A DNA stretch of 62,337 nt from a virus (taxonomy: Duplodnaviria > Caudoviricetes): positions 1-62,337 of the IMG/VR virus record IMGVR_UViG_3300025128_000029; one strand, given 5' to 3'. Every line of letters starts with the position of its first letter. Position 1 is the stretch's first letter. The notes beneath the pieces were generated by a model, which was given only the letters and a program-made list of their open reading frames with translations, searched no databases and had not been told where the DNA came from. Shown piece after piece: positions 15,800 to 60,591 of the stretch. The translations under genes and the position numbers were made by a program.

Positions 15800-18225
15800 T
15801 ATTGTCCTGCCTTCCCATTTGCATTCTGGGCTTGCCTTTGTAATGCAATATTCGCTCTCATTTGTGCAATATCCTCTGTGCTATCTATTCGCTCTCTTTG
15901 TATCGCATTAGACTCTTGCATTTTTTGTTTATCCAACTGTAACTTAGCTTGGTCTTGCATAGCATCTTGTTGTTGTTCTTGGGCTTTTAAATCTAACTCT
16001 TGTTGTTTAATCTCTACTAACGGATCATCACTTTCTTTTGGTGGGTTCGCTTGTAAATATTCTGCCATTAATTCTGCTTGTACTTCTGAGACTCTATTCT
16101 CCATAGCTACTGGATCTGGTTGTTCCTGTTGTGCCATAGCTGGATCCATCGCTCCATCCATAGGTGGTTGTGCCATTTCCTGCTCGACCATTACTTTTGC
16201 TTTCAAAGCTAAATGTTCATATATATGTTTTTCTAATGTCATCAATACTGCTGGTTGTAATTTAGCTGTTTGACTCTGCATATATATCTGGTGTACTGCA
16301 ATATGTGCATCATGATTCTGTTCAGGAAACGCAGTTAATTTACTTTGTCCTATAGCAGCATCACTTGCTTCTTGGTTTTCTGTTCCAGGATCTTTTGGTT
16401 GTGGTTGTGGCTTAGGAGTTAATATCTGGTCAATATTACCTACACCTAAAGCTTCATACATACGTTTATAACTCTCATACATATTGTGCATTTCTGGTGC
16501 AGCTTGAGCCAATTTTAATTGTTCTTGAGCTAAAATTACTCTTTGCGACATACTAAAAATATTAGGGTCGCTTACTGGAAGCACATCAATACGTTGGTCA
16601 AAATCTTGTGCTTTTATCTGTTGGTCAACACCTGTTTCATAAGGATAAGGCACAGGGTCTTGTGCAAACTGTCTCGCAAGCATTTTTAATTCTATTTTCA
16701 TAGAAGCATGCAATCTCTTATGCACAGCATTAATTACTCTAGCACCACGCTCAAGTAAAGCGATTGTAGTTCCAACTGGCATCTCTTGTTTACCATCACC
16801 TACACCAATATCACTTGTGCCTACAAATTTTTGTGCAGCCGATACAACAAATCCCATCAATTCAAACAATGTTCTACTTGGCTCTTTATAGGGTAAAGGC
16901 ATTAATACTGAACGTAAATCTCCTCCTGGAACATCTACATCTCTAAATTCTCCAGGACTCAAAGGTTCACTATCATTTGCAATTCGCATTCCTCTTGCTT
17001 TAAATCCTGCTGGCATATTACTCAATGTACCTGCATCTATCAACTGTCTGAGGTTCGCTGTCGCTGTTCTACTTAAATTACCTATCATATGAATTAATCC
17101 AAAACCATAAAACCCTAATCCTGGAGTAAACTTATATTGCACAAAATGTTGAATCTTTTGCTTCTGTATATCGTCTGGCATAAAGTTACGGCGAACACTC
17201 AACACATCGCTTGTATCGCTACAAACTGTTACGATATATGGTAACTTTATGCCAGTCTCTTCACCCTGTTCATCTTTATCTGTATATTCTTCTATGTCTA
17301 AATAACAATGGCACTCGTACAATGTAAATTCTTCATCATAAGAATTACTGTTTGTACCCGAAATTTCATTATACTTATCTGTAATCTGGTCAGCATCTTC
17401 AGCAGAGCCACCTTTCATATCCACATTACTGTAAATTCCATTCCGTTGTTGTTTTTTGAGTTCATTCTCACTTATCTTTATAGTATGCGTTACTCTCTCA
17501 GCACTGCGTAAATCAGTTGCTGTGTAAGGTACTACTAATTCCTCAGCAGGAATAAACTTACTTACAGGTCTACCCAATACTTCATCGCGATAAACCTTTT
17601 TAAACGCACTACCAGCAAGACCTAGAAAATATAACATCTGATCAAACTCGGGCTCGTATTCTTCCATCTGGTACATAACCATATAATTCATGTACTCAGT
17701 TACTCGTTTTGCTTGTTTTTCAACTTCTGGGTTAGAAGTTCCTACTATATGAGCTCTCACTGGACCACCACTCGGCATCATCTCTTTATATGCCCCAGCC
17801 TGAAACTGAGTAACAGCTTCATTCAACATGGGGTGGATTACTCCAGTTGCACCCTCAAAAGGTTCACTACGTTGCTCATAACGTAAACCAAGTAAATCTA
17901 ATCCTTTTGTATAACCCTCTTCCCATTCGGAACGGCTATTTTTATCTTCTTCTACAGAATCTAATACATAACTAGAAACCTCACTCAAACTATCATCTGA
18001 TAAATTATCTACTAAATTATCAAAAAAGTTTTCTGGCTCACCACCCATAGGGGCTTCTTCATCGCCAAATTGTATTTCAACCCCACCCTCTTCATCTTCC
18101 TCAATCTCAAAATCTACCTGCTGAGCTTCCTGTGCCAGTAAATCATCTTCCTCTAAACTAAGGGTATCATTGGGGGCTTGTATAAGCGATCGGTCTACAT
18201 TACTTGGACGTGGTGAAATAGCCAT
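15799..18225 (-). CDS. portal protein
   Basis: 808 aa after TerL; PFEGATGVIHPMLNEAVTQFQA, GSAFKKVY, PGLGFYGFGLIH, LRQLIDAGTL. Confidence 0.9.
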   Translation of the reverse strand: MAISPRPSNVDRSLIQAPNDTLSLEEDDLLAQEAQQVDFEIEEDEEGGVEIQFGDEEAPMGGEPENFFDNLVDNLSDDSLSEVSSYVLDSVEEDKNSRSEWEEGYTKGLDLLGLRYEQRSEPFEGATGVIHPMLNEAVTQFQAGAYKEMMPSGGPVRAHIVGTSNPEVEKQAKRVTEYMNYMVMYQMEEYEPEFDQMLYFLGLAGSAFKKVYRDEVLGRPVSKFIPAEELVVPYTATDLRSAERVTHTIKISENELKKQQRNGIYSNVDMKGGSAEDADQITDKYNEISGTNSNSYDEEFTLYECHCYLDIEEYTDKDEQGEETGIKLPYIVTVCSDTSDVLSVRRNFMPDDIQKQKIQHFVQYKFTPGLGFYGFGLIHMIGNLSRTATANLRQLIDAGTLSNMPAGFKARGMRIANDSEPLSPGEFRDVDVPGGDLRSVLMPLPYKEPSRTLFELMGFVVSAAQKFVGTSDIGVGDGKQEMPVGTTIALLERGARVINAVHKRLHASMKIELKMLARQFAQDPVPYPYETGVDQQIKAQDFDQRIDVLPVSDPNIFSMSQRVILAQEQLKLAQAAPEMHNMYESYKRMYEALGVGNIDQILTPKPQPQPKDPGTENQEASDAAIGQSKLTAFPEQNHDAHIAVHQIYMQSQTAKLQPAVLMTLEKHIYEHLALKAKVMVEQEMAQPPMDGAMDPAMAQQEQPDPVAMENRVSEVQAELMAEYLQANPPKESDDPLVEIKQQELDLKAQEQQQDAMQDQAKLQLDKQKMQESNAIQRERIDSTEDIAQMRANIALQRQAQNANGKAGQ

Positions 18226-19709
18226 TAGTAATAAATCCTTTCTTTAGGTATTGGATCTTCATCTTGATAATCCTCTGGGTGGGTTATAAACCCTCCCTCT
18301 CTAAATCTTCTCAAAGCTTGTGACACTGTATCAACATAATCGTCGTGTTCTCCTGCAGGAAATGCTGCACACTCTTCAACAACATCTTCAGCCCATGATG
18401 TATCTGGACACCATACTAACCCACTTTCGAACAAAGGTGCAATAGAATTTACTCGACTTATCTTATCATTTCCTCTACTAGGAGAATAATTAGTGACGGG
18501 GATCCCCATCTGCCTTAGTTCTTGGGTCAATGGCATACCCGAAGCTTTTGCCTCAATTAAAACCATTTCTGGCTCCCAATACTTATATTCTTCCAAAGCT
18601 TTCCTTCTTAACTCTGGAAAATCCCATCTACCCTTTCTCGCATCAACAAGAATAATGTTCGGAGGTTCACCCTCCTTTGGGTAAAAAACACCCCATGTTG
18701 TTATCGCACTATAATCTGCTGATTCCTGTTTACTAAATGCTGTATCATAACTCTGCATTACATATTCCAAAGCAGGTAACTCTTTCTTCTCCCACTTCTT
18801 CCACCAATCACGCTTAATTATCGCACTGACATCACTCGTCGGATTCTGCTGCCACTGAGCTTCCCACTTACCAACTGACAAACTTCCCTTTACGGCAAGT
18901 AAATCTTCCTTCTTCCAAAACTCACCCCATAAAGGTTCATCATTCGGCATCAACGCAGGAAACTCTATTATCTCCCATTTATCAGCCAGTATATCTCTCG
19001 CTTGCTGTCTTATCAATTTACCAGTTAAATCATTCTCAGCCCATCGCGTCATCACAATTACTATCGTTCCTCCTGGCTGCAATCTCTGTCTCGGACCAGA
19101 AGTGTACCATTCATAAGCATGCTCTAAAGCCGTCGGACTTAAAGCATCTTGCTCAGAATGGGGGTCATCAATAATTAATAAATCTGCACCTCGACCAGTA
19201 ACAGCTCCTCCTACTCCAGCAGCAAAATACTCTCCACCCTTATCCGTCTCCCAACGACCTGCTGCTTGGGAATCAACTCGTAAAGCAACCTTTGGAAAAA
19301 TTTTTAAATATTCTTGGCTATTCATCAAGTTACGAGTCTTACGTCCAAAACGAAAAGCAAGCTCAGCAGTATGCGTTGTCTGCATAATCTTCAACATAGG
19401 GTTCCTACCCATTAACCATGCTGGAAGCATAAAACTCGCAAATTCACTTTTAGTATGTCTAGGGGGCATGTTTATTATAACACGCTTTAAATCTCCCGTC
19501 GCCACTCGATTAAACTTTTCTGCCATAAGCTTATGGTGGCGTCCATGGATAAATCCATCCCAAGTCTGCTCCACAAAAGTTAAAAAATCCTTTTGGGCTA
19601 ACTCGGAATCTTCCATCTCCTTCGCTCTCTGCATTAAGTTCGCAAAATGCTTTAAACGATCCTCTGGTATTAACTCAATATCCATAGCCATTATTTTTTT
19701 ATATATCAA
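18225..19709 (-). CDS. terL: terminase large subunit
   Basis: INMPPRHTKS Walker A, LLIIDDP Walker B, SYDTAF and HDDYVD nuclease motifs; true start may be 19691. Confidence 0.95.
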   Translation of the reverse strand: MIYKKIMAMDIELIPEDRLKHFANLMQRAKEMEDSELAQKDFLTFVEQTWDGFIHGRHHKLMAEKFNRVATGDLKRVIINMPPRHTKSEFASFMLPAWLMGRNPMLKIMQTTHTAELAFRFGRKTRNLMNSQEYLKIFPKVALRVDSQAAGRWETDKGGEYFAAGVGGAVTGRGADLLIIDDPHSEQDALSPTALEHAYEWYTSGPRQRLQPGGTIVIVMTRWAENDLTGKLIRQQARDILADKWEIIEFPALMPNDEPLWGEFWKKEDLLAVKGSLSVGKWEAQWQQNPTSDVSAIIKRDWWKKWEKKELPALEYVMQSYDTAFSKQESADYSAITTWGVFYPKEGEPPNIILVDARKGRWDFPELRRKALEEYKYWEPEMVLIEAKASGMPLTQELRQMGIPVTNYSPSRGNDKISRVNSIAPLFESGLVWCPDTSWAEDVVEECAAFPAGEHDDYVDTVSQALRRFREGGFITHPEDYQDEDPIPKERIYY

Positions 19710-19772: not shown

Positions 19773-19859
19773 TTTTTTGACGTCACAAATTTTGCGAGGA
19801 ACATGGCAAGCCCCCTTGATAGGGCTTGCCTAAAAGTCTCTAGGGGGGGCGTCAAAAAA
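19773..19859. other. dyad-symmetric non-coding element, candidate genome terminus/packaging site
   Basis: TTTTTTGACG (19773-82) / CGTCAAAAAA (19850-59) around a centred GGCAAGCCC-N8-GGGCTTGCC hairpin (19805-30); G6/G7 runs nearby. Confidence 0.4.
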
Positions 19860-19885
19860 CCCTGTTAACCTATAGGCTAACAGGG
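19854..19885 (-). terminator. intrinsic terminator of 19903..20358
   Basis: minus strand CCCTGTTAGCCT-AT-AGGTTAACAGGG-TTTTTT. Confidence 0.75.
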
Positions 19886-19902
19886 CTAGGGGGTAACCTA
19901 AG

Positions 19903-20358
19903 TTACTTAGTTGTTGTTGGCATAGTGCTAACAAGTTTAATAAAAGGTGTACCCCAACTGCTACTACTAGGGCTATAACCACCATTTAACAGGGCTAATA
20001 AACAATTAGGTTTTTTACTGCTATGCCCTAAAGGTTTGCCAACTGCTAGGCTAGTACTAACAAGGTTACAAACCTTACCTGTTGTTTTGTTTTTAACACC
20101 ATGCAACATTGCATTTTGTATTATTGCCCTAACCCCATTAGGTTTACCACCATACCCAAAAGGTACAGGGTTAGCCTGTTGTAGTTTGCAATTAGGTAAT
20201 GGTACTATTTGTGCGTTAGCCATACTACCACCACAATTATTATTAATAAAAGCCCATAAACTAGCATAGGTTACCTCGTTGCCTGTATGTGTTAAAGTTG
20301 CGTAAGTTGTTGTTGGTGCTGTATTAGGTGCTACCTTACCTTTTGTTGTATTTTGCAT
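19903..20358 (-). CDS. hypothetical basic protein, Asp-free paralog of 20616..21059
   Basis: shared PVPFGYGG.P.GVR, PLGHS.KKP.CL.AL..GGYSPSS..W.TP.IKLV; own RBS (AAAAAGGGG) and terminator. Confidence 0.85.
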   Translation of the reverse strand: MQNTTKGKVAPNTAPTTTYATLTHTGNEVTYASLWAFINNNCGGSMANAQIVPLPNCKLQQANPVPFGYGGKPNGVRAIIQNAMLHGVKNKTTGKVCNLVSTSLAVGKPLGHSSKKPNCLLALLNGGYSPSSSSWGTPFIKLVSTMPTTTK

Positions 20359-20390
20359 TTTATACCCCTTTTTGGTTAATGCGTTAAAGT

Positions 20391-20426
20391 TGCTATTATA
20401 TAAACATTTATTTGTAATTTTTGCAA
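20391..20426 (-). promoter_or_regulatory. putative promoter of 19903..20358
   Basis: TATAAT at 20400-20395 (TATAATAGCA, also at 25180-25171); TTGCAA upstream with non-ideal spacing. Confidence 0.5.
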
Positions 20427-20470
20427 AACCAAAATAGTAGTTCTCTATATATAACCCCTATATTAATGCT

Positions 20471-20570
20471 TATGATTAGACCTCTCTCCATCCATCCTCT
20501 CATCGGGGAAATCATCGGGAATCCTCATCCTCTGGTCGGGGAAAATCCTCACGAATCATCGGAAGGCAAT
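20471..20570. repeat. TC/GA-dense degenerate repeat spacer
   Basis: ATCCTC / ATCGGG(G)AA units; 26 TC+GA in 100 nt by hand count. Confidence 0.75.
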
Positions 20571-20573
20571 GTC

Positions 20574-20605
20574 AAAAAAAGAGGGGACAGTCGCCTGTCG
20601 CCCTC
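20574..20605 (-). terminator. intrinsic terminator of 20616..21059
   Basis: minus strand GAGGG-C-GACAG-GCGA-CTGTC-CCCTC-TTTTTTT. Confidence 0.8.
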
Positions 20606-20615
20606 GTGTTAGATG

Positions 20616-21059
20616 TTAAGCTTTGACTACGAGCTTGATGTATGGAGTCATCCAGTATTTGCTGGACGGTGAGTATCCTCCGTGCATGAGAGCATGTAGA
20701 CAAGTAGGCTTTTTGCGACTGTGTCCAAGAGGAGCAGCTTTATTGAGTATGGTTTTAAGGGACATGTCCTTGTCCTTGCCGACACCGAATAATAACCAAT
20801 CCTGAATCATTTGTCGGACCCCTCCAGGCTGACCTCCGTAACCGAATGGGACAGGCTTGTCACTTTTTAAGTCACAGTTATCAAGTGGAACAACCACTAC
20901 GTTAGATTCTTGACCTCCTGCATGCTCCTGGACAAACTTCCAGATATCATTGTAGGATAGCTCCTTGTCAGTCACTTTTAACTCAACTGATTTTACAGTT
21001 TTAATTGGAGCGTCTAAGGTTAATGATGCCTTAGTCATCTTTTTAGTAGTTTTAGTCAT
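20616..21059 (-). CDS. hypothetical protein, normal-composition paralog of 19903..20358
   Basis: same motifs; TCGTAGAAAGGGG leader; 9 Asp + 4 Glu. Confidence 0.85.
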   Translation of the reverse strand: MTKTTKKMTKASLTLDAPIKTVKSVELKVTDKELSYNDIWKFVQEHAGGQESNVVVVPLDNCDLKSDKPVPFGYGGQPGGVRQMIQDWLLFGVGKDKDMSLKTILNKAAPLGHSRKKPTCLHALMHGGYSPSSKYWMTPYIKLVVKA

Positions 21060-21300: not shown

Positions 21301-21732
21301 CTAATCGTTGTCAGGACGACCCGATGATGATAGAATATGATTGATAATGCCCGTCCAGTCGTACGGGATTCTCGTCTCAAAATCAGGGATCAAGTCATCC
21401 TCCCTCCTCGGTGATTCTGTCCACTGTCTAGCTCGCCAACCCCCAAATAATTTGAGCGACGAGGAAGAGAGATGATGAACCAAGTTCCAGACATGTCCTG
21501 ATTGCGAAGAATATTGAGTTTGCCAGAGAATTTGGTGAGGAGACAAATTGATGGACTTTAATGACTTTAACCTGTGGACTTTCAATTCTAACCAAAAGGC
21601 ATGACCATCAACTATACCATGCAGATCTGGAACTCCAGGAATAGCCCACGACTCAAGACGTGTCCAAAACACCCCTTGAGCCTTTGTGTTGTCGCGTAGA
21701 TTATGCCACAGTTTGGACTCAGGCTTTTTCAT
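21301..21732 (-). CDS. VRR-NUC / PD-(D/E)XK nuclease (Holliday junction resolvase-like)
   Basis: PESKLW...RLES...GVPDL...FWLELK...LSPHQ. Confidence 0.75.
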   Translation of the reverse strand: MKKPESKLWHNLRDNTKAQGVFWTRLESWAIPGVPDLHGIVDGHAFWLELKVHRLKSLKSINLSPHQILWQTQYSSQSGHVWNLVHHLSSSSLKLFGGWRARQWTESPRREDDLIPDFETRIPYDWTGIINHILSSSGRPDND

Positions 21733-21982: not shown

Positions 21983-22436
21983 AATCCTTTCTACGATTAA
22001 TTAAGTTATATTTAATAATAGCATAAAATACGTCTAGGTGTTTAATTTATTATCAAGAGTTCTCCGTGTCACGGAAGTAGTCTACTTGTACTTTAATGGC
22101 GATGCCGTCTTGTTCGGCTCCATTCCTCATTTCTTTTATAACACTAATAGCCTCGTCTAAGCTTTTCTGGTCAACAACTTTTGTAAACCAACTGATAAAG
22201 TCGCCTCCCTCTTCAATGTTATACAAAAAAGCATAGACTTCCTGAGGGGAAGACATTGTTATTACTAACCGACCATCTTCTCCCCACTGCTCAGTATAAG
22301 TACTAATATTATCAATAACAACAGGGTTGATATAGTAGGTGCTATGACCTGATTCTTTGATTAAAGTGTTAAACAACATGATAAATCCTTTCTACGATTA
22401 ATTTGTTTATACTTATATAATAGCATAAAATACGTC
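21983..22436. repeat. direct repeat of promoter/RBS cassette flanking 22053..22379
   Basis: AATCCTTTCTACGATTAATT at 21983 and 22384; ATAATAGCATAAAATACGTC at 22015 and 22417. Confidence 0.85.
22053..22379 (-). CDS. hypothetical early protein
   Basis: TCGTAGAAAGG leader; 108 aa. Confidence 0.6.
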   Translation of the reverse strand: MLFNTLIKESGHSTYYINPVVIDNISTYTEQWGEDGRLVITMSSPQEVYAFLYNIEEGGDFISWFTKVVDQKSLDEAISVIKEMRNGAEQDGIAIKVQVDYFRDTENS

Positions 22437-22983
22437 AAGTGGTGTCTTTTATTACCTTACTTTCTCCCTCTATGACAAGGTTATCTTCAGTAAAAGATTT
22501 GAGTGCAGGAAACTCTTCCTGGATTCTCTTAATTTCTTTCATGACCTCGTCGCGATTCATCGAGTCAATCTTTCCATGCAGAATCTCTTTGCGATCAATA
22601 TAAAGTCCGGCAGCTTGACCTCGGGACTTCTCTGCCGCGACTGCTGCTGCGAAATTCCCTCCTGTCATAGCTTGATCTCTGATCTCGGCTAATTTTTTGA
22701 CGTGTCCTTCAAATGAGACTTCATATTTTTTAGACAGCTCAGCTTTAAGCTCTTTGATTCGGGCGACTACTGCTGGATATCGGGTTCCGTTGAGGAGTTG
22801 CGATGCTATTGCATGAGCTGATGCGACAGAGTATCCTGCTCTTATCGCTGCTTCAGTCTGGCTTATGTCTTCAGTTACATAAATCTTAGCGAACTCTTCT
22901 TGTTTGGGAGTGATCCCCTTCTCCGATCGGGGATTGCCTACAATATCTAATGTGGGCTTATGTGTCTTTTTTGCTAATGCCAT
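22435..22983 (-). CDS. terS: terminase small subunit
   Basis: ITPKQEEFAKIYV...TEAAIRAGYS...ASQLL...AEKSRGQAAGLY; start MALAKK after AGGAG. Confidence 0.8.
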   Translation of the reverse strand: MALAKKTHKPTLDIVGNPRSEKGITPKQEEFAKIYVTEDISQTEAAIRAGYSVASAHAIASQLLNGTRYPAVVARIKELKAELSKKYEVSFEGHVKKLAEIRDQAMTGGNFAAAVAAEKSRGQAAGLYIDRKEILHGKIDSMNRDEVMKEIKRIQEEFPALKSFTEDNLVIEGESKVIKDTT

Positions 22984-23058
22984 AATTATCTCCTGTACTT
23001 TACATAATAGGAGCAGACTAAGAATTTGCAAAGAATTTTTTTATCTCCGATAACAGTG

Positions 23059-24435: not shown

Positions 24436-24795
24436 CTATTCTGTCTTTATAAATACTCCATCTAAATTATAACCTTTTCTATCTTGGATCTCAACTAATG
24501 CCTTGCGTAAACAATCTTTTACACTAATCTCATTCCTAATCATGATATTTATCATTACAACCAACATATCACCAAGTGAATCGGTTAGGTCATTATAAAT
24601 ATCGGAACAAATATCATCAGATAATTCACCTAATTCCTGCATCAACTTTAAACATTGGTCTTTGTCGGAACTACCCTCTATTAATCCTCTATTTTCATGC
24701 CACTTTTTTACTTCGTCAATGAGTTCGTCGTACTCCATTGAATCGAACTTAGAGCTAGTCCATCTTCTGGCATTTGGCTTACTAAAATCACTCAT
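24436..24795 (-). CDS. MazG-like NTP pyrophosphohydrolase
   Basis: W...RGL...QCLKLMQELGEL...DSLGDMLVV...EIQDRKG...DGVFIK. Confidence 0.8.
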   Translation of the reverse strand: MSDFSKPNARRWTSSKFDSMEYDELIDEVKKWHENRGLIEGSSDKDQCLKLMQELGELSDDICSDIYNDLTDSLGDMLVVMINIMIRNEISVKDCLRKALVEIQDRKGYNLDGVFIKTE

Positions 24796-30941: not shown

Positions 30942-31490
30942 TTATTTTAATTCTAGTAGAATACTATGTACTACTGCAAAGTCGGGATTGCTAGAAAATT
31001 TTCTATACAAATATTCTCTGCCACGAGTATAAATAGGCTCAGCTAAAGTATTTCCCATTTGCGTTTGTCTTTTACAATGCAGAACTAACTCAAGCATATC
31101 AGCCATTTTTACTAACCCTCTATCTCTGTCTGTTAAATCTTGTAACATAACAGGAAGTTCTAGATCTTTTTCGTATTTAAACTCTGCTTTTGAAAATTCT
31201 TGTGCTAAATCTGTGTACTTCCACTTTGTAGTAGCTGGAAGATCGCCTAACTCAGCTTCTGCCACATCGTGGAATAATAACCAGAGTATAGCCTCTTTAC
31301 TTACATCTTCCCATAATGTAGTCAGTACAATCAATGCCCTCCATGTATGACTGGCAACATTCTGTCCTTCACCTACTTCGGGTCTTGTATGGAATCTAAC
31401 AACATGACCCCCTTGTAATCTTCTATGTACTTTTCTTAGTAATAAGTAATCCCCTTTTTGTGAAGATCCCCATTTTATATTATCTGACAT
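30942..31490 (-). CDS. HD-domain 5'-deoxynucleotidase/dNTPase (YfbR/DatZ-like)
   Basis: VVRFHT...NVASHTW...HDVAE..LGDLP..TK...KMADMLE. Confidence 0.8.
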   Translation of the reverse strand: MSDNIKWGSSQKGDYLLLRKVHRRLQGGHVVRFHTRPEVGEGQNVASHTWRALIVLTTLWEDVSKEAILWLLFHDVAEAELGDLPATTKWKYTDLAQEFSKAEFKYEKDLELPVMLQDLTDRDRGLVKMADMLELVLHCKRQTQMGNTLAEPIYTRGREYLYRKFSSNPDFAVVHSILLELK

Positions 31491-33555: not shown

Positions 33556-33844
33556 TTAATCTTACCTCTGCCTCCACTAATAACAAGTACCTCCTTAAAT
33601 CTTGTATATCATCTAATATACCCTCTGGGCGAGTATCTTCCTTTATTGCTTGGAAAACATCGTAATTAACTTTTGTTACTTGGTTCTCAAGCCTATCCCA
33701 TTTACGAGCAAGCATCATAAAAGCACCTACACCACCTCGCTTTTTCCAACTATCACCGTAAGATTGCTCAGCTTCATGTAACCCTTTTACATCTTCGTTT
33801 GCTAATGTATTTACTTTTTGTATTATCTTACTTCTAGTACTCAC
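33518..33844 (-). CDS. nucleotide-modification-associated domain 1 (Nmad1/DUF1599-like, MazG-fold)
   Basis: SYGDSWKKRGGVGAFMMLARKWDRL...DDIQDLRRYLLL; GTGA overlap suggests GTG start at 33844. Confidence 0.65.
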   Translation of the reverse strand: MSTRSKIIQKVNTLANEDVKGLHEAEQSYGDSWKKRGGVGAFMMLARKWDRLENQVTKVNYDVFQAIKEDTRPEGILDDIQDLRRYLLLVEAEVRLNGITRPEDKSSL

Positions 33845-34824
33845 TTCAGTCTCCTCTCTAACCATTCTATACAAGCCCTCCTCCATGCTCTATCATTTAT
33901 TCTTGATGCAAACTTTAATGCTGTAAGTAGTTCTTTCTTTTTCCAAGCTTTCCATGACTTCATCATGGGGGTAGCTGTGTCTGTGAGATAAGTATTAGTT
34001 AATCCTTCTATAGTATAATCATCAAACCATTTGTACAACTCAGAATCAAAATTATGAGCATTATCTATTAATGGTGGCGAATTATAACTTAACCCATCTT
34101 CAGCTAATAAAAGATAAGGTTCATAATCGGGCTGTAGGGAATATAAGTTTAATTTTTCTAATACATCTGTATAAACATGAAGATTATTACTTATTTGATA
34201 ATAAGTACCAATTTTATTATCTGTCATGAAAGCCATATATTCTAACAAAAAAGACATATGTACTGCATTTGCTCCATAAGCACCCCAGATCATATCATTA
34301 CTTCTGTTTACCACAGTCATATTAAGATAACCTTTTCTAGCCCAAAAAAAGACTTGTGTATTACAAGGATAATCTACTCCTGTGTTTGTTGAAGTTAGAT
34401 CAGCATAAGGATCCCACATACCTACTACAACTCTACGATCATTAGGGTAACTTAACAATCTGTTTTTAGCTATGTTTAATTGGTCTACACCAAAGTGCTT
34501 CCTCCAGCGATGTCCGTATGCACCATGAAAGGTAATACCGTCATCGCTATAATTATTCATTCTTCCGTTAAATTGGCTAATCCACTCTACATCATTACGA
34601 CCTGCTAACATCCATAAGCTTTCCATAAAATGGAAATATGGGTTAGCATCACGTTGAGGGTAAAACAATACTCTTTCCCAACTGTGTGTGTATTCTGTGC
34701 AAACAGGCATTGGAAACTCTAAAGCTTTACCATTTCTAGTATCTACCTCTACCCCTGTGTTTTGGATAACCTGTATGCCGTGATATAAAGCCTCACTAAC
34801 ACCTCTACTATATATATTGTACAA
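33841..34824 (-). CDS. dUMP hydroxymethylase (thymidylate synthase superfamily)
   Basis: TRNG, ANPYFHFMESLWML.GRND, AYG.RWR, catalytic DYPCN, RSNDMIWGAYGANAVH with Asn (dUMP-type) specificity residue, NLHVY. Confidence 0.8.
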   Translation of the reverse strand: MYNIYSRGVSEALYHGIQVIQNTGVEVDTRNGKALEFPMPVCTEYTHSWERVLFYPQRDANPYFHFMESLWMLAGRNDVEWISQFNGRMNNYSDDGITFHGAYGHRWRKHFGVDQLNIAKNRLLSYPNDRRVVVGMWDPYADLTSTNTGVDYPCNTQVFFWARKGYLNMTVVNRSNDMIWGAYGANAVHMSFLLEYMAFMTDNKIGTYYQISNNLHVYTDVLEKLNLYSLQPDYEPYLLLAEDGLSYNSPPLIDNAHNFDSELYKWFDDYTIEGLTNTYLTDTATPMMKSWKAWKKKELLTALKFASRINDRAWRRACIEWLERRLK

Positions 34825-34909: not shown

Positions 34910-35905
34910 CTACTCAATGTTTAAGAACTGCTTGTATTGGCTACCTATTATTATAGGGTCGTGTAATTTAAGAGCATTATACCCATTTTCTCTAATTGAT
35001 GGTATAGAATCAGAGTAAGCCCCATTGAGTATAGTAGCCAACTCTTCTGCAGAGCCAACAGCAAAACAGTTATAATCAGGCTTCATATCATCAGGTTCGT
35101 CAAGTATCCACTTATTATGTATAATAGGAATACATCCTGCATTCCAAGATTCTAAAGCTGTGTATTGTGTTCCACCACCATCACCCACTATTTGCGTCAT
35201 ATCTACATTAAACACATAATCTTGCATTAACTTAAACGCAAAATCATTTTCTCTAGGGTAATGGGCTTTAGATTGTACCCACTCTGGATACTTTGGCACA
35301 ATTTTAAACCGAGTAAAAATTCTGTTTTCAAAACCTCTTATATTTATTTTCTTATCTTCAGTTAATAACCTATTAGCATCTAATAATATTTCAGTGTGCT
35401 TATCAAAATCAATACGCGAAGTACTTACAGCACCCTTTCTATCAAGGTTAGTATGTTTAGGAAAAGGTGTATAAGGGTGACGGATAAAGGTTGCCCCCTC
35501 AAAAGTTCTTGCACCTATTTGTCTAATAACAACACACCTTTTAGGGTCTAAATCAACAGGTAAGTTTTTTAATTCAGTTGGGTCATGAACAACGATACTT
35601 GCACCTATATCGTACAATAGCTGTGTTTCTTCTTTAAACTGCTTTGCCCCAGCGACAACTAACTTAATCGTTTCTTTGTACTCGTTGTTTACAATAGTTT
35701 TACGATTCCTAGCCTCAGCCATAGAAATATTTCTATAATGTTTACCATAACCAAACTCACGGCTTTTGCGTTCACTCTTTGGTCTTATCTTAAACAGGGT
35801 ACACTTAACTCCTACTGCTTCAAGGGCTTCCATCAAATGATTAGTATAAGTAACCCAACCTCCATACGGATTAGGGCTTAAATAAAATAAATCTACATGT
35901 GTCAT
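34910..35905 (-). CDS. GT-B fold glycosyltransferase (GT4-like), putative DNA glycosyltransferase
   Basis: PYGGWVTYTNHL N-terminal loop, VVHDP, TSRIDFDKH, GGGTQYTALESWNAGCIPI; ATGA overlap gives start 35905. Confidence 0.7.
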   Translation of the reverse strand: MTHVDLFYLSPNPYGGWVTYTNHLMEALEAVGVKCTLFKIRPKSERKSREFGYGKHYRNISMAEARNRKTIVNNEYKETIKLVVAGAKQFKEETQLLYDIGASIVVHDPTELKNLPVDLDPKRCVVIRQIGARTFEGATFIRHPYTPFPKHTNLDRKGAVSTSRIDFDKHTEILLDANRLLTEDKKINIRGFENRIFTRFKIVPKYPEWVQSKAHYPRENDFAFKLMQDYVFNVDMTQIVGDGGGTQYTALESWNAGCIPIIHNKWILDEPDDMKPDYNCFAVGSAEELATILNGAYSDSIPSIRENGYNALKLHDPIIIGSQYKQFLNIE

Positions 35906-36816
35906 GCTACAGGTCCTTCCAATGTTTTCCATTTGTTGTAATTTAAAAGTGAACTAAGATGGGCATCGTACTTACTACGAGGTGTACCTTGCCCTAATCT
36001 AACTCTTTCATACTTATCCCACTCACACAGGCTATGCTCTATAGTTCGCATATCTACGTTTTCAATGGAGACTACATTTCTAGTACCCTGTGCAATATCT
36101 AATACTTTTTTCATTTCTATATTAGACTGAACAGCAGTTAGTCCTTTAGTAAGGGGTCTATCGTATAACCTGTTTAAACCTCGTTTTGCTCCTGGACCTG
36201 CGTTCGCCCAAGTAAAACGGTCTGTCGCCTCGTCCAGTATGCGTGTGTAGTTGAGATCGGTAACCACTTCGTAAGACATAAAGCCCCCTCCACCCCACCC
36301 ACGATAGGCAGACATCGCATGGTGTAAGGCTTGTAACGACTGAGTGTTGGTCGCAATCTCGGCAAGTTTTTCTTTGCTTTCCCAAATAGGGGTGAGGAAA
36401 TGGTCAACTACAACTTCTCCTTTAGGTAACTTTAACCCTTGATTAGTTATAATATATGCTCCTGTAAAAGTTCGCAACTTCTTAGCCAATCGTTCGGCGA
36501 TTAATTGCTTAGTATATTCAGGATCCCACTTTGAAGCCCAACCATGAGCCTCAGCAAACTCAGTTGTACCAACCATTCTAAACAAACAACAGTTAAATAT
36601 TATTTCGCCATCGGGTTTATTATGGTTTGGGTTTGTCCAGTTCTGACGCATCCATATAGTAACCTTATCGTTTTCACGGAAAGGGTTTGTAAATTTATAC
36701 TCTTGGAGTATTTTATCTTTTGTAAAGGGAGGTGGATCACCAATTACTTTTTTTCGGTAAATAGCATGTCGCTCATTTATCCAATAAAAGAACCTTTCTA
36801 AGTTCTCTATGTTCAC
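35902..36816 (-). CDS. aGPT-Pplase1-like DNA base hypermodification protein (HhH glycosylase-derived)
   Basis: FFYWINERHAIY.KK..G.PPP.T.D.ILQ.YKFTN.FRENDKVT, FTGAYII, FMSYEVVTDL, ANAGPGAKRGL, EH.LCEWDKY.R. Confidence 0.8.
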   Translation of the reverse strand: MNIENLERFFYWINERHAIYRKKVIGDPPPFTKDKILQEYKFTNPFRENDKVTIWMRQNWTNPNHNKPDGEIIFNCCLFRMVGTTEFAEAHGWASKWDPEYTKQLIAERLAKKLRTFTGAYIITNQGLKLPKGEVVVDHFLTPIWESKEKLAEIATNTQSLQALHHAMSAYRGWGGGGFMSYEVVTDLNYTRILDEATDRFTWANAGPGAKRGLNRLYDRPLTKGLTAVQSNIEMKKVLDIAQGTRNVVSIENVDMRTIEHSLCEWDKYERVRLGQGTPRSKYDAHLSSLLNYNKWKTLEGPVA

Positions 36817-36818: not shown

Positions 36819-37430
36819 TTACTCTCCCATACCTAGCTGGATTACTTTGTTTTGAATAGCAATAGTAATATCTCTGGCACTTCCTGGAGAAGGCTCTAGC
36901 TTACGCAAAGATTGTAATGCTTCACCTAAAGTATCAGAGTTTAAAATAACCATCATATTTCTATAACGATTTGTACCCTCACGCATAGGGGGTGAATCCA
37001 TAAGCTTTTTTATTTTTACATGAGGTTCTAACTTATGAATAGGCATAGATGTCAATGTTCCATCAGCAACTATGTTTAAGACTTCTTTGGTAGCTTCTGG
37101 TGTTAATTCAGTCATTTTCTTTCCTTCTGTTTTTTCTATAGGTTTATATTTTTTGGAGTGTGTTTCCACATATTCAAAAAAGTTAGTATAATGTTGGTCT
37201 TCGTTATACTTGTGAAAATGATATTGGTTACAGGCTACAAGAATCCACTTTAAATCTTCAGCAGAATAATCCCTTTGTAACTGTTGTATATCAGAGAAGA
37301 CAATACTATACTCATTAACTTCTTTACACTCTTTACTTGCACTTAATGTAGGAAAATGAAAAAAGCTATAAGCTGTATTCTTCCCACTATTATTATCGTT
37401 TTCTAAAACGATGTACACTTGTCTTGCCAT
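36819..37430 (-). CDS. hypothetical protein heading the modification operon
   Basis: start MARQVY after AGAAAGG; C-terminal PMREGTNR...TLGEAL...DI..AI....IQL domain. Confidence 0.55.
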   Translation of the reverse strand: MARQVYIVLENDNNSGKNTAYSFFHFPTLSASKECKEVNEYSIVFSDIQQLQRDYSAEDLKWILVACNQYHFHKYNEDQHYTNFFEYVETHSKKYKPIEKTEGKKMTELTPEATKEVLNIVADGTLTSMPIHKLEPHVKIKKLMDSPPMREGTNRYRNMMVILNSDTLGEALQSLRKLEPSPGSARDITIAIQNKVIQLGMGE

Positions 37431-37513
37431 GTATCTTTCCTTTCTATGAAAAAATGCCAATGTTCATATTCTGCAATATGCACATTGGCATGACAAGGTT
37501 TATTTTGTCGGTA

Positions 37514-41328: not shown

Positions 41329-42863
41329 TATATCAAACCTGAACCTTTGGGTAGGTCGGGAATTTTTATTTCTACATCGTCAGTATCAAAATATTCTTGT
41401 GGTAAAGACCATACATGAATACCCTTGTTTTTAATTCTCCAAAACATTTTATCTGCCCCTAAATCTCTTAACCTTAATGTTATTTTATTAGAAGTATAAT
41501 GGTTGAAATCGTTTACAGACAAATGTTTTTTAACATCTTTTATTTGAAAATAAACTCTGCCCTCAACCCATACAGCAACTCCTTGAATAATTTCCTCTTT
41601 CTCTTCACCTTTGGCTCTTTCACAACAAAAAGCATGAAGTAAATCTTCAAACTCTCCTTTAAGTGTAGCATCAGGTGGAACTTCTACAATAGTTACTTTA
41701 TCTAACAAAGCTTGTATTCTTGTTTGCCAAGCCCTCTGGCTAATAGTAATCGGGAATTTATTTATTTGTGCAACACACTCCCTTTGAAACTGAGTCTGTG
41801 CTGTTAAACCACTTGTAGATAATTCAACCCTTTGATCATCTACGTTTAATATCCATATAGCAGGATCACCATCTATTTTAGTTAAGCTACTTAAATCGTT
41901 ACTAACTGTATTCGGACCTACACCATACTTCCGTGTCTTACAAACTTCTTTATCACAAAAAGGTTTTATTGGTTGGTCTTCACATTTATAAAAATATTCT
42001 TTTTTGTTAAGCTGTTTGATAACAGTGCCTACTTCACTATGACTCAAGGGTGGGGAAAAGTAATCTATATTATATTTTTGTATTAAAGTTTCCCAATTAT
42101 TTTCATCAAATCTTCTAGCATAAACACCCAAGTTAAACAGAGCATTATTGCGTGAACCCTCAGCAAATCCCTTACTACATAAATGTTGTAAGCATGGTGG
42201 ACCTTCCTCAAGAACACCCTCTTTTACTCCAAAGCTAAATTGTAACTTCATAAATTCTTTAGGGGTAATCCTGTTTCTCTTTGCATACTCTATAAAAGCT
42301 GTTGTTAACATTGTTGTGCCTTTTTCATCAAAAGCATAACGAGTAGTTTTATCCCCTGCATGATAAGGCATATTTAAAAAGTTACCTGTATCTCCTCGCT
42401 CTACTAATATAGTAGATTGCTTAGGAAATATCTCACAACCAGAATGACCTAGAGCTGCTGATAATTCTGTCATCTTGCGTTGCATATCAATAGCTTCAAT
42501 AGACTCTGTTAAAAATACCCATACATGAGCTCCACCACTTTTAGTCCTGCCTACAACAGCAGGGATATTATTGTTATGTAAAATATCGCATAATTCTTTA
42601 TGGTCAATATCATACTTATCAATATCTATTGCACCCCATTGACATTGGTTATCGCTTCGTATTGGGATAATACCTATACCTGTTCCTCCTGTTAGATGTT
42701 CTTTCCACATATCAACAGTAGTAGGCTCTTTTATAACCTTTGCAGTACCTTGTTTTTTACCACCTCCAGGACGGCTTGTGTTTACTATAAATGTTCCATG
42801 AGCAATATCACTGCCCTTAAACAAGTCAAAAAATTCTTGTGCTAAATCCATTAGTTTCTCCAA
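41328..42863 (-). CDS. primase (AEP/primase-polymerase-like with PriCT-like domain)
   Basis: HL.G..GIG..PI, IDID, RTKSGGAH, EIFPKQ, GNFLNMPY, PPCL, RNNALFN. Confidence 0.8.
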   Translation of the reverse strand: MEKLMDLAQEFFDLFKGSDIAHGTFIVNTSRPGGGKKQGTAKVIKEPTTVDMWKEHLTGGTGIGIIPIRSDNQCQWGAIDIDKYDIDHKELCDILHNNNIPAVVGRTKSGGAHVWVFLTESIEAIDMQRKMTELSAALGHSGCEIFPKQSTILVERGDTGNFLNMPYHAGDKTTRYAFDEKGTTMLTTAFIEYAKRNRITPKEFMKLQFSFGVKEGVLEEGPPCLQHLCSKGFAEGSRNNALFNLGVYARRFDENNWETLIQKYNIDYFSPPLSHSEVGTVIKQLNKKEYFYKCEDQPIKPFCDKEVCKTRKYGVGPNTVSNDLSSLTKIDGDPAIWILNVDDQRVELSTSGLTAQTQFQRECVAQINKFPITISQRAWQTRIQALLDKVTIVEVPPDATLKGEFEDLLHAFCCERAKGEEKEEIIQGVAVWVEGRVYFQIKDVKKHLSVNDFNHYTSNKITLRLRDLGADKMFWRIKNKGIHVWSLPQEYFDTDDVEIKIPDLPKGSGLI

Positions 42864-42870
42864 AAAGGGT

Positions 42871-42895
42871 GAGGGCTACATAACTTGTAGCCCTC
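42871..42895 (-). terminator. hairpin/terminator after SSB-like gene
   Basis: GAGGGCTACA-TAACT-TGTAGCCCTC. Confidence 0.65.
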
Positions 42896-42928
42896 GCAGT
42901 TGTAAGGTGATCAGTCCTTCCAACCGAA

Positions 42929-43723
42929 CTAAAATGGTATATCGTCTTTTACTTCTTGTGAGGCTGGCTCAGCAGAGGGTTCTTTTACTTCTACTTCTCC
43001 AGCTTGCACAGATTTAGCAAAAGCTATCGCAGCATCAAACATGTGCTTCTCATGGTTATTGGCTAAGTCTATTTGTTTTTCTTTATTAATAACCCAACCA
43101 AACCAAGAACCCATATCGTTCTGCTCGGGAACTGTAGTAAGCTTATATAAATGGGACATCATAGGTAAAGTGTACGGACCATTCTTACCCATCGCTGTTA
43201 AAGCATTCATTTGTGTAATCCAACGTCTGGACTTCTTTAACTGTGTACTAGACATAGTTATTAAAGCACGACTGAAACTACCATCAGCAGTTGCTAATAA
43301 TACAAAGTGTTGAGCAGTATTAGAAAGTAAATTACCATTTGGTAATACATCTGCATTTTTATCGTTTTTTGTAGTTGTCTTTACTATTGGGTCATCAGGT
43401 AAATAGCTACCCATGTATCCACCACCAGACTCACGAGGTTTCCACTCAATAAACCTACGATTAAAATAACAAGGCATCACAGAAACACCTACTTCACCAT
43501 CGTAAACTTCATTAGCTACTGTATTATATATCATTCCTGGCTCAGCACCATCAACATATGCACCATCTCTTTTGTTTACCTGTGGTGAACCTTTATCAAG
43601 AATACGCAAAAATGGTATAGACATATCCTCTGCACTTACTTCAGCAAACCCTGTTACTGAAACATCTTCAAACGCACTCATTGCAAGCTGAGTGCTTTGC
43701 TTTTCAACTATTTCTTTAGCCAT
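42929..43723 (-). CDS. single-stranded DNA-binding protein-like
   Basis: IPFLRIL...SPQV, MSSTQLKKSRRW, acidic C-terminal DDIPF. Confidence 0.7.
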   Translation of the reverse strand: MAKEIVEKQSTQLAMSAFEDVSVTGFAEVSAEDMSIPFLRILDKGSPQVNKRDGAYVDGAEPGMIYNTVANEVYDGEVGVSVMPCYFNRRFIEWKPRESGGGYMGSYLPDDPIVKTTTKNDKNADVLPNGNLLSNTAQHFVLLATADGSFSRALITMSSTQLKKSRRWITQMNALTAMGKNGPYTLPMMSHLYKLTTVPEQNDMGSWFGWVINKEKQIDLANNHEKHMFDAAIAFAKSVQAGEVEVKEPSAEPASQEVKDDIPF

Positions 43724-50000: not shown

Positions 50001-50210
50001 AAGGTTTTGAGCTAAATTAACGAAATAATTTTGATCTCGTTCCCCAACAGATTGTTTTTCTGCTGTACCAACTAAAGATTCTGTACCAAAAGTCTTACTT
50101 TTCTTTTCTTCTGTTGATCGGGAATCAAAAGGTAAAAGACCTTTATATCCACTTTCAGCTTCATAAGCATTTACATCATCTTGACTAGGAGCAGTTATTT
50201 TAAAATCCAT
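47100..50210 (-). CDS. large internal virion/DNA ejection protein
   Basis: 1036 aa, Gly/Ala-rich N-terminus, helical; last of three large genes after tail stabilisation gene. Confidence 0.6.
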   Translation of the reverse strand: MDFKITAPSQDDVNAYEAESGYKGLLPFDSRSTEEKKSKTFGTESLVGTAEKQSVGERDQNYFVNLAQNLFGGFNDIVLALPDAGINAIASAMESAGIVEPGTVDRNFLSRVFNSTDYEDMNVIIPYVLSYGVGEFVGPTGTGAKLARGSGQGGGLALPFVGLSGRTAQLGSGAVRTGTTGTVAGSDKVAPILQEAVTKGYTSAPALTAGIETGFGALSGGGATAEKELFGTETGIGALAAPLAGPAIYTGGKYLFTNSPAARLVKWTFGKGKDAVADIKTQNKILEGQQNVLEDTTPGGKAAQSEFGKQLKAAVETEEGAANLDRAIQIEENIGGVPGLKLSPAEQTMDPALIKAQREVEGKGSPDFTRKNNQRKQDNLDAIENFKTSTFSGDPLIDSPFYVVDLVTKKYTSMLGKLKDQDGTLVNRIDEASNAESGLLPKITNRSIVGKNIRTTIEKNYNNAKTIAEKEAKDLGINNNTTLSTIDSLKKSQAKVRNLIPQLKGTATIKEINEKSLSGSGVNSLIKKFVTFFPEQGQDGITFFDWKNFREMAGAELGKQSALGNKPQVKQLAILLEELDIMGKNFGKINESFETYRKSYYNNVIQPYEKSAVLQVMQKGAGSSKENPVYQTSDENVADAFFASDETLGQFIGTFKQNKNMINAMKSTIYDKAYDAAITKNGLNADKLNVFINKNREKLTTIGMMDEFGDTAKLLQNMATRRLDLTNRAKIISNNKMVKGLLLATDNLNPDKMFDDALRNGKLMSVLKREVGKIDDFKATEAFNAAIFQRIFAKSPDLASNPTAFKQYLATNEKVLDIALGKEHFENLYLIADAVERVNLLPRNLGEGVTNKGMGDKLANLIGSTPLNVSNRLVAVGEKRLGPRAAIGYFLSRAISQQSNIRADALMQEAIFNPQIAKLLVQESPKDSASVIIPEINRRLNQFLFNLGIPFGADMSPPSAPPVQIEIEPLSSNEVTPPVVQTAEADIKPNITTANNLPAPSPTNVKNKTSVTDLFPFDATSAAIEKRKQSGIMGLA

Positions 50211-50223
50211 TAAATTCTCCTTA

Positions 50224-55340: not shown

Positions 55341-55378
55341 GTTAGTACCTTAACAGTTTCATAATAATTATACAATCC

Positions 55379-55774
55379 TTAAACTCTTCGTTGTTGAGAG
55401 AACTCTTGTACACTTGCTACAACATGTAATCTTTCTCCTGTCGCAGCAGTTGCTTTTAATACTTCTCCACTTTGCAATACTAAATCTCTCGTTAATAGTT
55501 CTACTGATGTATTTGCAGCGATAGCCTTAACTTGGAACAAACTGAAAACATGAGAAGTAAGACTTCCAGTTGAACTTACACCATTTCCAGTAATGGTTAC
55601 AGTTATTGTATCACCACTACCTGAATCATTAGATACTATTATAGAACTAATAACGGAAACATTAAAATCGCCATCACTCGGTGCTGTGTAAACAGTTGTT
55701 ATCGCAGTTGTTGTTAGATCAGCTTTAGCATTTGTCATGCCCTGAATAAATTGTGGAACAGTTGTTATAAACAT
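55379..55774 (-). CDS. virion structural protein
   Basis: beta-rich 131 aa in tail operon. Confidence 0.55.
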   Translation of the reverse strand: MFITTVPQFIQGMTNAKADLTTTAITTVYTAPSDGDFNVSVISSIIVSNDSGSGDTITVTITGNGVSSTGSLTSHVFSLFQVKAIAANTSVELLTRDLVLQSGEVLKATAATGERLHVVASVQEFSQQRRV

Positions 55775-60211: not shown

Positions 60212-60220
60212 TTAATCACC

Positions 60221-60415
60221 TCATATAATTCTTGTTTTTATATCTGTCCAAGTTTCTGCACCTGAAGGAGTTATATTTGTCCATGACTCAGATCCCGAAG
60301 GTGTTAAGTTACTCCAAGTTTCATTCTCTGTAGGTATTATATGTCTCCAATGCTCTCTTGACAATATAGCAATATCATTAAAAGCTAATTCACCGAAAGT
60401 AAAACTAGAAAACAT
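60221..60415 (-). CDS. small virion protein with W-repeat
   Basis: ETWSNLTPSGSESWTNITPSGAETWTDI. Confidence 0.55.
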   Translation of the reverse strand: MFSSFTFGELAFNDIAILSREHWRHIIPTENETWSNLTPSGSESWTNITPSGAETWTDIKTRII

Positions 60416-60591
60416 CAATCAGCATCCTCTATCTTGTTGCCATCAGCTACCCATTCTTGGATTGCTATGTAGTGTCTGTTAGCTGTGTCCATTGGAACAG
60501 ACATCTCTTGTCCATCTATTTTACACATAATAGCTATTTTTGTTTTACCATCTATGGGATTTATAAACCATTTTGCATTTTCTATAACCAT
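60415..60591 (-). CDS. 58-aa tail-fibre partner protein
   Basis: VPMDTANRHYIAIQEWVADGNKIEDAD, read manually; GGAG RBS. Confidence 0.6.
   Translation of the reverse strand: MVIENAKWFINPIDGKTKIAIMCKIDGQEMSVPMDTANRHYIAIQEWVADGNKIEDAD

Follow-up and report, generated by a model that had tools for sequence, protein, structure and literature searches.

One gene of a marine phage is kept free of the dinucleotide TC and of its reverse complement GA, from a promoter-like zone to the end of its terminator. We analysed the IMG/VR virus record IMGVR_UViG_3300025128_000029 (Duplodnaviria; Caudoviricetes), a complete record of 62,337 bp (CheckV completeness, 100%), which is called the window throughout. 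Upstream of terL, positions 19854–20441 (588 bp) hold no GA and a single TC on the plus strand, at 20276–20277; an earlier note, made from the sequence alone, had pointed to this block, and our recount gave the same numbers. The block coincides with an open reading frame (ORF), here called ORF A, and its control elements. The loss of TC and GA, referred to below as the purge, recurs in diverged relatives, is most consistent on the template strand and changes between near-identical phages. The data support the conclusion that the cassette as a whole is under strong and ongoing selection against the TC/GA step.

GA or TC occurs at 6,702 positions of the window (10.75%). The free runs inside the block are 424 and 166 bp long and the next longest in the window is 59 bp; under a geometric model, about 8e-18 runs of at least 424 bp would be expected. 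The block has 1 GA or TC site, whereas the median for windows of 588 bp is 63 and no window that does not overlap it has fewer than 41; the observation is far beyond chance. A sliding-window count found the block to be unique genome-wide, with no similar stretch arising elsewhere, and an outlying gap was absent for the remaining nine reverse-complement dinucleotide classes in the same scan. Chance or base composition as the cause was ruled out by the gap lengths, the window counts and the synonymous resampling described below. The features of the locus are as follows.

18225–19709, minus strand: terL
19854–19886, minus strand: intrinsic terminator of A, with a 12-bp stem, a 4-nt loop and U6 (-22.5 kcal/mol, z = -3.6)
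19854–20441, no strand: TC/GA-free block, defined by its gaps (424 + 166 bp vs 59 bp) and the 588-bp window counts
19903–20358, minus strand: ORF A, 151 aa, isoelectric point (pI) 9.94, with 1 Glu, 0 Asp and 1 Arg; a member of an unnamed phage protein family of about 145 aa
20359–20441, minus strand: 5' untranslated region (UTR) and A/T-rich promoter-like zone, inferred from position and relatives
about 20365–20373, minus strand: ribosome-binding site (RBS) of A, AAAAAGGGG
20442–20574, no strand: TC/GA-rich spacer
20575–20605, minus strand: intrinsic terminator of B, a hairpin with a U-tract (-17.7 kcal/mol, z = -5.45)
20616–21059, minus strand: ORF B, a paralog of A, 147 aa, normal in composition (13 Asp+Glu; 58 GA+TC)
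21301–21732, minus strand: small nuclease-like ORF
22435–23031, minus strand: terS (PF03592)

Together these elements form one complete, insulated expression cassette, in which a putative promoter zone, an RBS, ORF A and an intrinsic terminator follow one another and the terminator of B, just upstream, insulates the cassette against upstream read-through. Both edges of the free zone are sharp, as the earlier note had described: at the 3' side the first TC/GA (19852–19853) directly adjoins the U-tract of A's terminator, and at the 5' side the zone stops 83 nt upstream of the ATG of A. The note had also stated that the purge covers promoter, RBS, ORF and terminator. The whole 588 bp is indeed free and the terminator is supported by folding, but the promoter is putative. 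A simple consensus scan flagged neither this promoter nor the terminator of A, for which folding is the support; a terminator-like hairpin followed by a T-run was seen by eye downstream of A in most relatives. The promoter-like zone contains TATAAT (20395–20400) and TTGCAA (20421–20426), 20 nt apart, and relatives have -35/-10-like pairs in the same place that are better spaced, at 16–17 nt.

We next compared ORF A with synonymous versions of itself, in which the protein was held fixed and the codons were drawn from genome usage (20,000 draws). ORF A has 1 GA or TC site, compared with 27.4 +/- 3.9 in the resampled sequences, and the minimum among the 20,000 draws was 14; ORF B has 58 sites where 44.5 were expected. 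All 12 Ser codons of A are AGY, its single Arg is AGG, its stop is TAA, and the codons GGA, ATC, TTC, GTC and CTC are absent from it; the Ser, Arg and stop codons given in the earlier note were confirmed, as was the RBS difference between A and its paralog (CCAAAAAGGGG vs TCGTAGAAAGGGG). The lone sense-strand GA in A belongs to its single Glu codon (GAG), and most family members have this Glu in common. The purge has also altered the protein, with 1 Glu and 0 Asp in A against 13 acidic residues in B, and a pI of 9.94 vs 9.54. Selection on the DNA thus shows in synonymous sites, amino-acid content, RBS, UTRs, promoter zone and terminator. The strong selection that the note had proposed is thus borne out by the site count, by the loss of acidic residues and by the retention of the purge in diverged relatives.

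Proteins A and B are 49% identical over 129 residues (E = 7e-44) and have the invariant motifs PFGYGG, GVR..IQ and LLNGGY in common. Protein searches returned 41 relatives and 66 cluster representatives, all unnamed, many with zero or one acidic residue. No Pfam, PHROG or PDB sequence-profile match was found for A, and the ESM Atlas returned only unnamed viral clusters for A and B. An AlphaFold (AF2) model of A from a 38-sequence alignment was confident, with a predicted local distance difference test (pLDDT) score of 83.9 and a predicted template modelling (pTM) score of 0.77; Foldseek with this model against PDB and BFVD gave nothing at E <= 0.001, and a wide VIA-align search reached a best Z of 4.8, with many winged-helix chains near Z 3, inside the noise range of the tool. 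Neither blastn of the locus nor tblastn of B against 50,697 phage records (E <= 1e-3) gave a match. The closest cultured phages by terL are the pelagiphages HTVC027P and HTVC023P and phage 023Pt_psg01 (57–61% identity); in the two neighbourhoods inspected, those of HTVC027P and 023Pt_psg01, an A/B-like gene near terL is absent.

The sequence between the stop of B and the promoter zone of A (20442–20615) has 35 TC/GA sites per 174 bp (0.20 per nt), which is twice the density of the genome; 25 of the 35 are sense-strand GA, and short repeats of the GAGGAT / CCCGATGA kind occur there. We considered this GA-rich spacer as a conserved roadblock and rejected it, as the enrichment is confined to the window's own lineage. 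In several relatives (L008, L017, L026, L034 and others; L numbers denote loci and G numbers genomes) a hairpin lies about 30–50 nt upstream of the start of A, at the presumed 5' end of the message, and keeps its pairing despite changes on both sides (GTAGCC/GGCTAC vs GTAAGC/GCTTAC). The window lacks this hairpin, and its 5' UTR of A is unstructured.

Conservation, turnover and strand preference of the purge

After a first 13 loci, the IMG/VR scans confirmed 173 stretches, of which the best 80 gave 79 loci. In these uncultured marine phage loci, at least 79 in number, the order is B then A wherever both copies are on the contig. The GA+TC density of B is always normal, at about 0.09–0.16 per nt, and that of A ranges from 0 to about 0.1; copies with fewer than 0.025 sites per nt were classed as purged. 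When 91 distinct proteins were placed on a tree, all B copies, every one of normal density, fell into a single clade, and the A side holds 26 purged and 7 intermediate copies as well as some relaxed ones, so that all purged family proteins (26/91) are on the A side. Three more distant lineages, fetched separately, are purged too, and their A proteins are 36–51% identical to that of the window. A search of relatives had been suggested in the earlier note; 26 or more distinct versions of the TC/GA-free A block occur in related loci, with protein identities as low as 36%.

The extent of the purge follows the gene. Free runs reach 715–735 bp in L115–L118 and 539–846 bp in L125–L128. In L128 (4659–5336) the frame of A opens 72 codons further upstream, which makes an ORF of 225 aa that includes a second MQN... 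start, and this in-frame N-terminal extension contains neither Asp/Glu nor TC/GA. The A locus is the sole long GA/TC-free island in the window, in G001–G005 and in G011, that is, in every complete purged genome. L120–L124 have one unpurged copy each, and some of these contigs stop too near the match to exclude a second copy. We also considered that lineages with a TC/GA-containing A might have purged a different word; none of the 10 dinucleotide classes is purged there, and in no lineage is any dinucleotide other than TC/GA purged. Trinucleotides differ between lineages; in L036 and L061, for example, ATC is the most depleted and TCA is tolerated, with counts too small for a motif call.

The purge state changed at least 11 times on the tree, and close pairs of phages differ in it. 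Genomes G014 (purged) and G007 (relaxed) are 92–100% identical in the flanks (150-bp windows), and in the cassette the identity falls to 0.48–0.79; their A genes are 69.5% identical. Likewise, the A proteins of L055 and L088 are about 88% identical and have 3 vs 28 sites, a difference that is largely synonymous. The cassette is hypervariable between otherwise 92–100% identical genomes, and the purge switches on and off rapidly.

The two strands are not treated alike. In the fully purged A copies, the residual sites are almost all in-frame Asp/Glu codons. Four copies (L036, L065, L082 and L014) have no sense GA at all, Asp/Glu codons included, and 7–23 sense TC. Relaxed copies of the A clade have 16–34 sense TC, at or above expectation, and only 1–8 out-of-frame GA, against about 8–16 out-of-frame GA in B copies. 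Synonymous resampling of the grouped copies gave the following observed/expected ratios, for which the raw per-locus counts are the better basis, since sorting into A and B by motif put three B-clade rows in the wrong group and many loci had too few codons to be kept.

Purged A: avoidable GA 0.01, TC 0.05
Intermediate A: avoidable GA 0.13, TC 0.42
B: avoidable GA 0.67, TC 1.52

Avoidance of sense GA, that is, of TC on the template strand, is near-universal in A, and avoidance of TC on the non-template strand is separable and optional. The earlier note had proposed that a 5'-TC-3' target is avoided on both strands; this holds for the window itself, where the word and its reverse complement are both depleted beyond codon and composition expectation, as is expected if duplex DNA is avoided, but family-wide it holds only for the template strand, and a subset of relatives avoids only sense GA.

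The purge also reaches upstream of the gene. In 21 sequence-distinct purged lineages, the promoter segment [-130,-50] has 66 sites compared with 163 in composition-matched shuffles, and the farther segment [-200,-130] has 167 compared with 173. That the avoided words are reverse complements and that sites are lost even ahead of the likely start of transcription both speak for duplex DNA as the target and not RNA, and the template-strand bias fits a polymerase that reads the template. Word symmetry, reach into the promoter zone, the match to the transcription unit and template bias together point to a target that is duplex DNA and is relevant to transcription.

Candidate agents behind the purge

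We infer three things: modification by the phage itself as the agent, TC as the context of that modification, and transcription as the process that is protected. In our leading reading, which is the most economical and which we rate at about even chances, the phage modifies its own thymidine, by way of 5-hydroxymethyluracil (hmU), in the context TC, and the cassette stays transcribable by avoiding this context. TC would be the context in which this lineage turns the hmU-derived thymidine into a bulky modified base, and the candidate machinery would be a module of a ThyA-like protein, a PF18723 protein and the product of a glycosyltransferase slot. The TC-free cassette would then be the one transcription unit beyond the modification, which the host RNA polymerase could bind and read at a rate independent of the modification state of the rest of the genome, with template-strand sites mattering most. 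Its product is a basic, acid-free copy of paralog B, the conserved protein of about 145 aa in the terS–terL module. The cell could obtain this protein even while TC-bearing genes were poorly read, and B would be the normal second copy, with the same function under ordinary expression.

Published work lends this some plausibility. Passages of Flodman et al. 2019 (PMC6449724) assign hmU-derived hypermodification in phages M6, ViI and phiW-14 to TG/TC by restriction resistance; the motifs of thymidine hypermodification had been called unknown in 2018 in a passage of PMC5889632. According to parts of PMC6457204, Escherichia coli RNA polymerase output is about 350% on hmU templates and, after phosphorylation by the hmU DNA kinase 5-HMUDK, 37% of that on natural DNA, and bulky major-groove groups inhibit transcription. 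For T7 RNA polymerase, an excerpt of PMC11550810 describes template-strand modifications with positive or negative effects and mildly positive non-template ones. The genes in the window that could supply such a system are as follows.

30942–31490, minus strand: HD-domain YfbR-like 5'-deoxynucleotidase
33841–34824, minus strand: ThyA-family protein (PF00303, E = 2.6e-20), candidate dUMP hydroxymethylase (or thymidylate synthase)
34910–35932, minus strand: 340-aa protein in the slot of the GT4-type glycosyltransferase, with no Pfam or PHROG match
35902–36816, minus strand: PF18723 (HMUDK_hel) protein (E = 2.3e-46), homolog of M6 gp55

The earlier note had named the phage's own thymidine hypermodification as the simplest agent. 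In its favour are the ThyA-like and PF18723 genes, polA, enzymes that clear deoxynucleoside mono- and triphosphates, the GT4-type gene in relatives and the published TG/TC context, but the missing kinase and the unpurged relatives with the same module, described below, are against it. The YfbR-like 5'-deoxynucleotidase would fit nucleotide-pool editing for base replacement, and a weak MazG-like match (24436–24795) is under the Pfam cut-off. The replication block includes the ThyA-family gene, the PF18723 protein, polA, a UvrD-like helicase, an AEP primase and Pam3 gp32-34-like genes. The clustering of the PF18723 gene with the ThyA-like gene and polA was found in the same gene order in 9/9 genomes compared. 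In seven of these nine a GT4-type glycosyltransferase lies between the PF18723 and ThyA-like genes, an assignment that was above the Pfam cut-off in one of two relatives tested (28.9 vs 26.4 bits); the window and G002 have an unrelated protein there instead (340 and 323 aa, respectively). For 34910–35932 and 36819–37460, no Pfam or PHROG match to an aGPT-Pplase2-type or other group transferase was found. PF18723 is present in 8/8 records at least 90% complete with purged A, in 2/2 records at least 90% complete without purged A, and in 3/6 less complete records. The Pfam name of PF18723, "5-hmdU DNA kinase, helical domain", is a label and no proof of kinase activity; depositors have called its homologs aGPT-Pplase clade 1, 5-hmdU kinase domain protein and terminase small subunit.

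Several observations weigh against the modification reading, and what keeps us at even chances is a putative chemistry for which no kinase was found, the differing purge state of near-identical genomes that share the module, the lack of a purge in every other gene, and the absence of an island from the first 50 kb of other PF18723 carriers. A P-loop 5-hmdU DNA kinase was not found in the window, where a very divergent one is possible; a tblastn search of the window with the kinase homolog of Sonora had no hit better than E = 6, and the only Walker A motifs in the window are those of the UvrD-like helicase and an 834-aa ORF. In M6 (L135, 41685–43264), a published motif locates the radical SAM gene gp53, which is followed by the P-loop kinase gp54, and the window's PF18723 protein matches the ORF directly after gp54 (42260–43264). 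Judged by this match, the window's protein is a homolog of gp55 and not of the kinase gp54, and part of PMC8989533 describes gp55 as dispensable for the reconstituted M6 reaction. Moreover, G006, G007 and G009 carry the same PF18723 module without a full purge or an island, and G014 and G007 are about 94% identical over 12.8 kb that includes the PF18723 match of G014, with the cassette essentially the sole difference. When the ORFs of six purged and three unpurged genomes were clustered, no gene followed the purge; two clusters that occur in 5/6 purged genomes are missing from the window itself. No depletion was seen elsewhere in the window's genome, coding or noncoding, as all other gaps are at most 59 bp and all other 588-bp windows have at least 41 sites. 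M6, PhiJL001 and Sonora, all PF18723 carriers, have no comparable island within the first 50 kb of their genomes. Finally, the consensus scan flagged no promoter for A, whose TTGCAA and TATAAT are 20 nt apart, so that the promoter is putative.

An extended form of the modification reading, which we regard as doubtful, would make A a "modification-proof" bootstrap gene. From fully hypermodified DNA, host RNA polymerase without help could read no other unit, and the product of A, later backed by B, would enable the modified genome to be transcribed or handled.

An agent from a host or a competitor that attacks DNA at TC is unlikely, although the turnover makes it attractive; the cassette would then carry a counter-measure, which would have to remain intact and open to expression while the other DNA is hit. 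Candidate TC-acting factors include nucleases, DarT-type thymidine ADP-ribosyltransferases and TC-specific deaminases. That the cassette is the single hypervariable module between near-identical genomes, with L055 and L088 behaving alike, that the changes on the tree are arms-race-like and easily explained by differing hosts, and that no phage gene tracks the purge would all be accommodated. The strand data speak otherwise, as a double-strand nuclease is blind to strand, yet avoidance of template TC is near-universal and that of sense TC optional, and agents acting on the exposed non-template strand predict the opposite asymmetry. Furthermore, one protected gene cannot rescue a genome irreversibly damaged elsewhere, and protein A matches no recognisable inhibitor or enzyme family.

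RNA-level immunity appears rather improbable. Here the messenger RNA would avoid GA, and often UC, and thereby escape an endoribonuclease of short specificity, whether a HEPN-type or CRISPR-associated RNase of the host or a shut-off RNase of the phage; RNases preferring GA or UC exist. Such an agent would account for sense GA as the near-universal constraint, for the exact stop of the purge at the 3' end of the transcript, and for relaxed lineages such as L083, in which GA is back in the promoter and still rare in the transcribed part. With an RNA target, however, two avoided words that are exact reverse complements of each other are not expected. The purge also enters the promoter zone, which is presumed to be untranscribed, and many otherwise purged lineages retain GA within the RBS (GTAGAAAGG). 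A weaker point against it is that no Pfam RNase family was matched by the 62 ORFs of the window (mostly E <= 0.001–0.01), most small ORFs being family-less.

That the DNA is a protein-recognition site kept unmodified, for example a pac or terminase-loading region with an incidental ORF, is very improbable. The block lies directly upstream of terL within the terS–terL module, and a conserved C-rich + GAGAC element follows the terminator, which would suit this explanation; but the edges fit a promoter and a terminator instead of an element the size of a binding site, the asymmetry goes with the coding strand, the ORF shows conservation at the protein level, including invariant motifs, and the inserted coding sequence of L128 is purged as well. 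As a side observation, the element, at 19836–19853 between the terminator of A and terL, consists of a C-run and then GAGAC in most lineages (for example CCCCCGCGAGACC; the window version is CCCCCCCTAGAGAC), and it could be a packaging or regulatory element.

A mutational footprint, in which a deaminase repeatedly hypermutated TC to TT in a highly transcribed unit, is hardly credible: many differences from B to A are of the Asp-to-Asn type (GA to AA; e.g., IQDW to IQNA/IQNW), but the state is kept through deep divergence (36% identity) with an intact ORF, AA and TT are only mildly enriched (59 vs 53 and 83 vs 71), the asymmetry is opposite to that of non-template-strand exposure, and no other gene is affected.

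Relation to known systems

Avoidance of restriction or other target sites is known in phages, e.g., in the site-poor leading region of T7 with gene 0.3 (ocr). The cassette resembles this case in the loss in cis of a short reverse-complement-symmetric word, linked to a gene whose expression is possibly needed whatever the fate of the other DNA. It differs in that the word is of 2 bp and its removal has rewritten codons, amino acids, RBS, UTRs, promoter and terminator, and in that the avoidance is limited to one transcription unit of about 0.6 kb, with an asymmetry between template and non-template strands. ACA-less messages resist the MazF interferase, and there, too, every copy of a short word is removed through synonymous and amino-acid changes; unlike those messages, the cassette loses both reverse-complement words, into the promoter zone, which points to DNA over RNA. 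Vertebrate genomes have unmethylated CpG islands, and kinetoplastids use base J (glucosyl-hmU) as a transcription stop signal. The likeness is one of concept, that of an unmodified, transcription-competent island in an otherwise modified genome and of a polymerase that glycosylated hmU may hinder; unlike a CpG island, the cassette would be unmodified through the absence of the target word and not through site protection, and it comprises a single phage gene.

Among modified phages, the systems of M6, ViI and phiW-14, as described in PMC6449724 for the context and by Lee et al. 2018/2021 (PMC5889632 and PMC8989533) for the pathway, share with the window the clustering of a ThyA-like gene, a PF18723 gp55-like gene and polA, and the context of T followed by C is half of the motif given for them in PMC6449724. 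The window differs from the M6-type system in that it shows no P-loop kinase or aGPT-Pplase2, and from the TG/TC context in that TG/CA is not avoided in the cassette (observed/expected 1.09). In Pseudomonas phage iggy, DpdA inserts dPreQ0 at a strict GA motif, according to a section of PMC10484667, so that the entire recognition motif is GA, the same step on the opposite strand. Unlike iggy, the window has no match to the TGT/DpdA family (PF01702) at E <= 0.1, a search in which 14/14 control genomes matched; therefore, the known GA-motif deazaguanine system is not applicable.

A full-text literature search found no prior description of such a cassette; the supplementary tables of PMC6449724 and PMC8989533 (per-enzyme restriction data, metavirome contigs) were not covered by it. 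Target-word avoidance itself is an already known phenomenon. As far as these searches show, the complete 2-bp purge of one transcription unit, which reshapes the protein, follows a strand hierarchy and is rapidly gained and lost, is a new variant of it.

Hypermodifications are known mainly as nuclease shields, and both their cost to the phage's own expression and the ways in which phages cope with it are almost unexplored. A purge carried as far as the removal of Asp and Glu is a natural experiment of unusual clarity and argues for a strong cis-acting cost of the TC step, in which the template strand matters most; the constraint also flips between phages that are almost identical. Should the phage's own modification be the agent, the modification context could be read from sequence alone, the native cassette compared with a recoded one would be a test bed for bulky bases and bacterial RNA polymerase, and a design rule would follow for genes expressed from modified DNA. 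If the bootstrap form is true, word-free cassettes would reveal hypermodification motifs in uncultured phages with no wet-lab mapping. If the agent is instead a host factor or an RNase, the cassette would point to a hitherto unknown dinucleotide-specific defence and its probable counter-measure.

Further observations on the window and its relatives

In four metatranscriptome runs, sparse low-depth contigs covered A, B and terL alike, and these possibly reflect DNA carry-over.

We also considered that the cassette might lie at the genome end, as the first DNA to enter the cell. This was not supported, as 7/9 contigs start and stop near the homologs of window positions 55774–62090 and of the low-coordinate tail end, and not at A. 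Other records of the clade mostly break near the homologs of 55774–62090. The 60,123-bp record G005 (L048/L050) has the A region at both ends, as if circularly assembled, and is classed as linear. At the upstream genome end of the window (47100–61704) there are eight large ORFs (367–1036 aa) with no Pfam family at E <= 0.01. A 214-aa ORF at 40442–41086 matches PHROG 3704 (ferredoxin, auxiliary metabolic gene class; E = 3e-109) and occurs only in the window and G004 among the nine genomes compared. Nearly all genes of the window are on the minus strand, the plus strand has a marked skew of T>A and C>G, and CG is strongly under-represented across the window (observed/expected 0.50).

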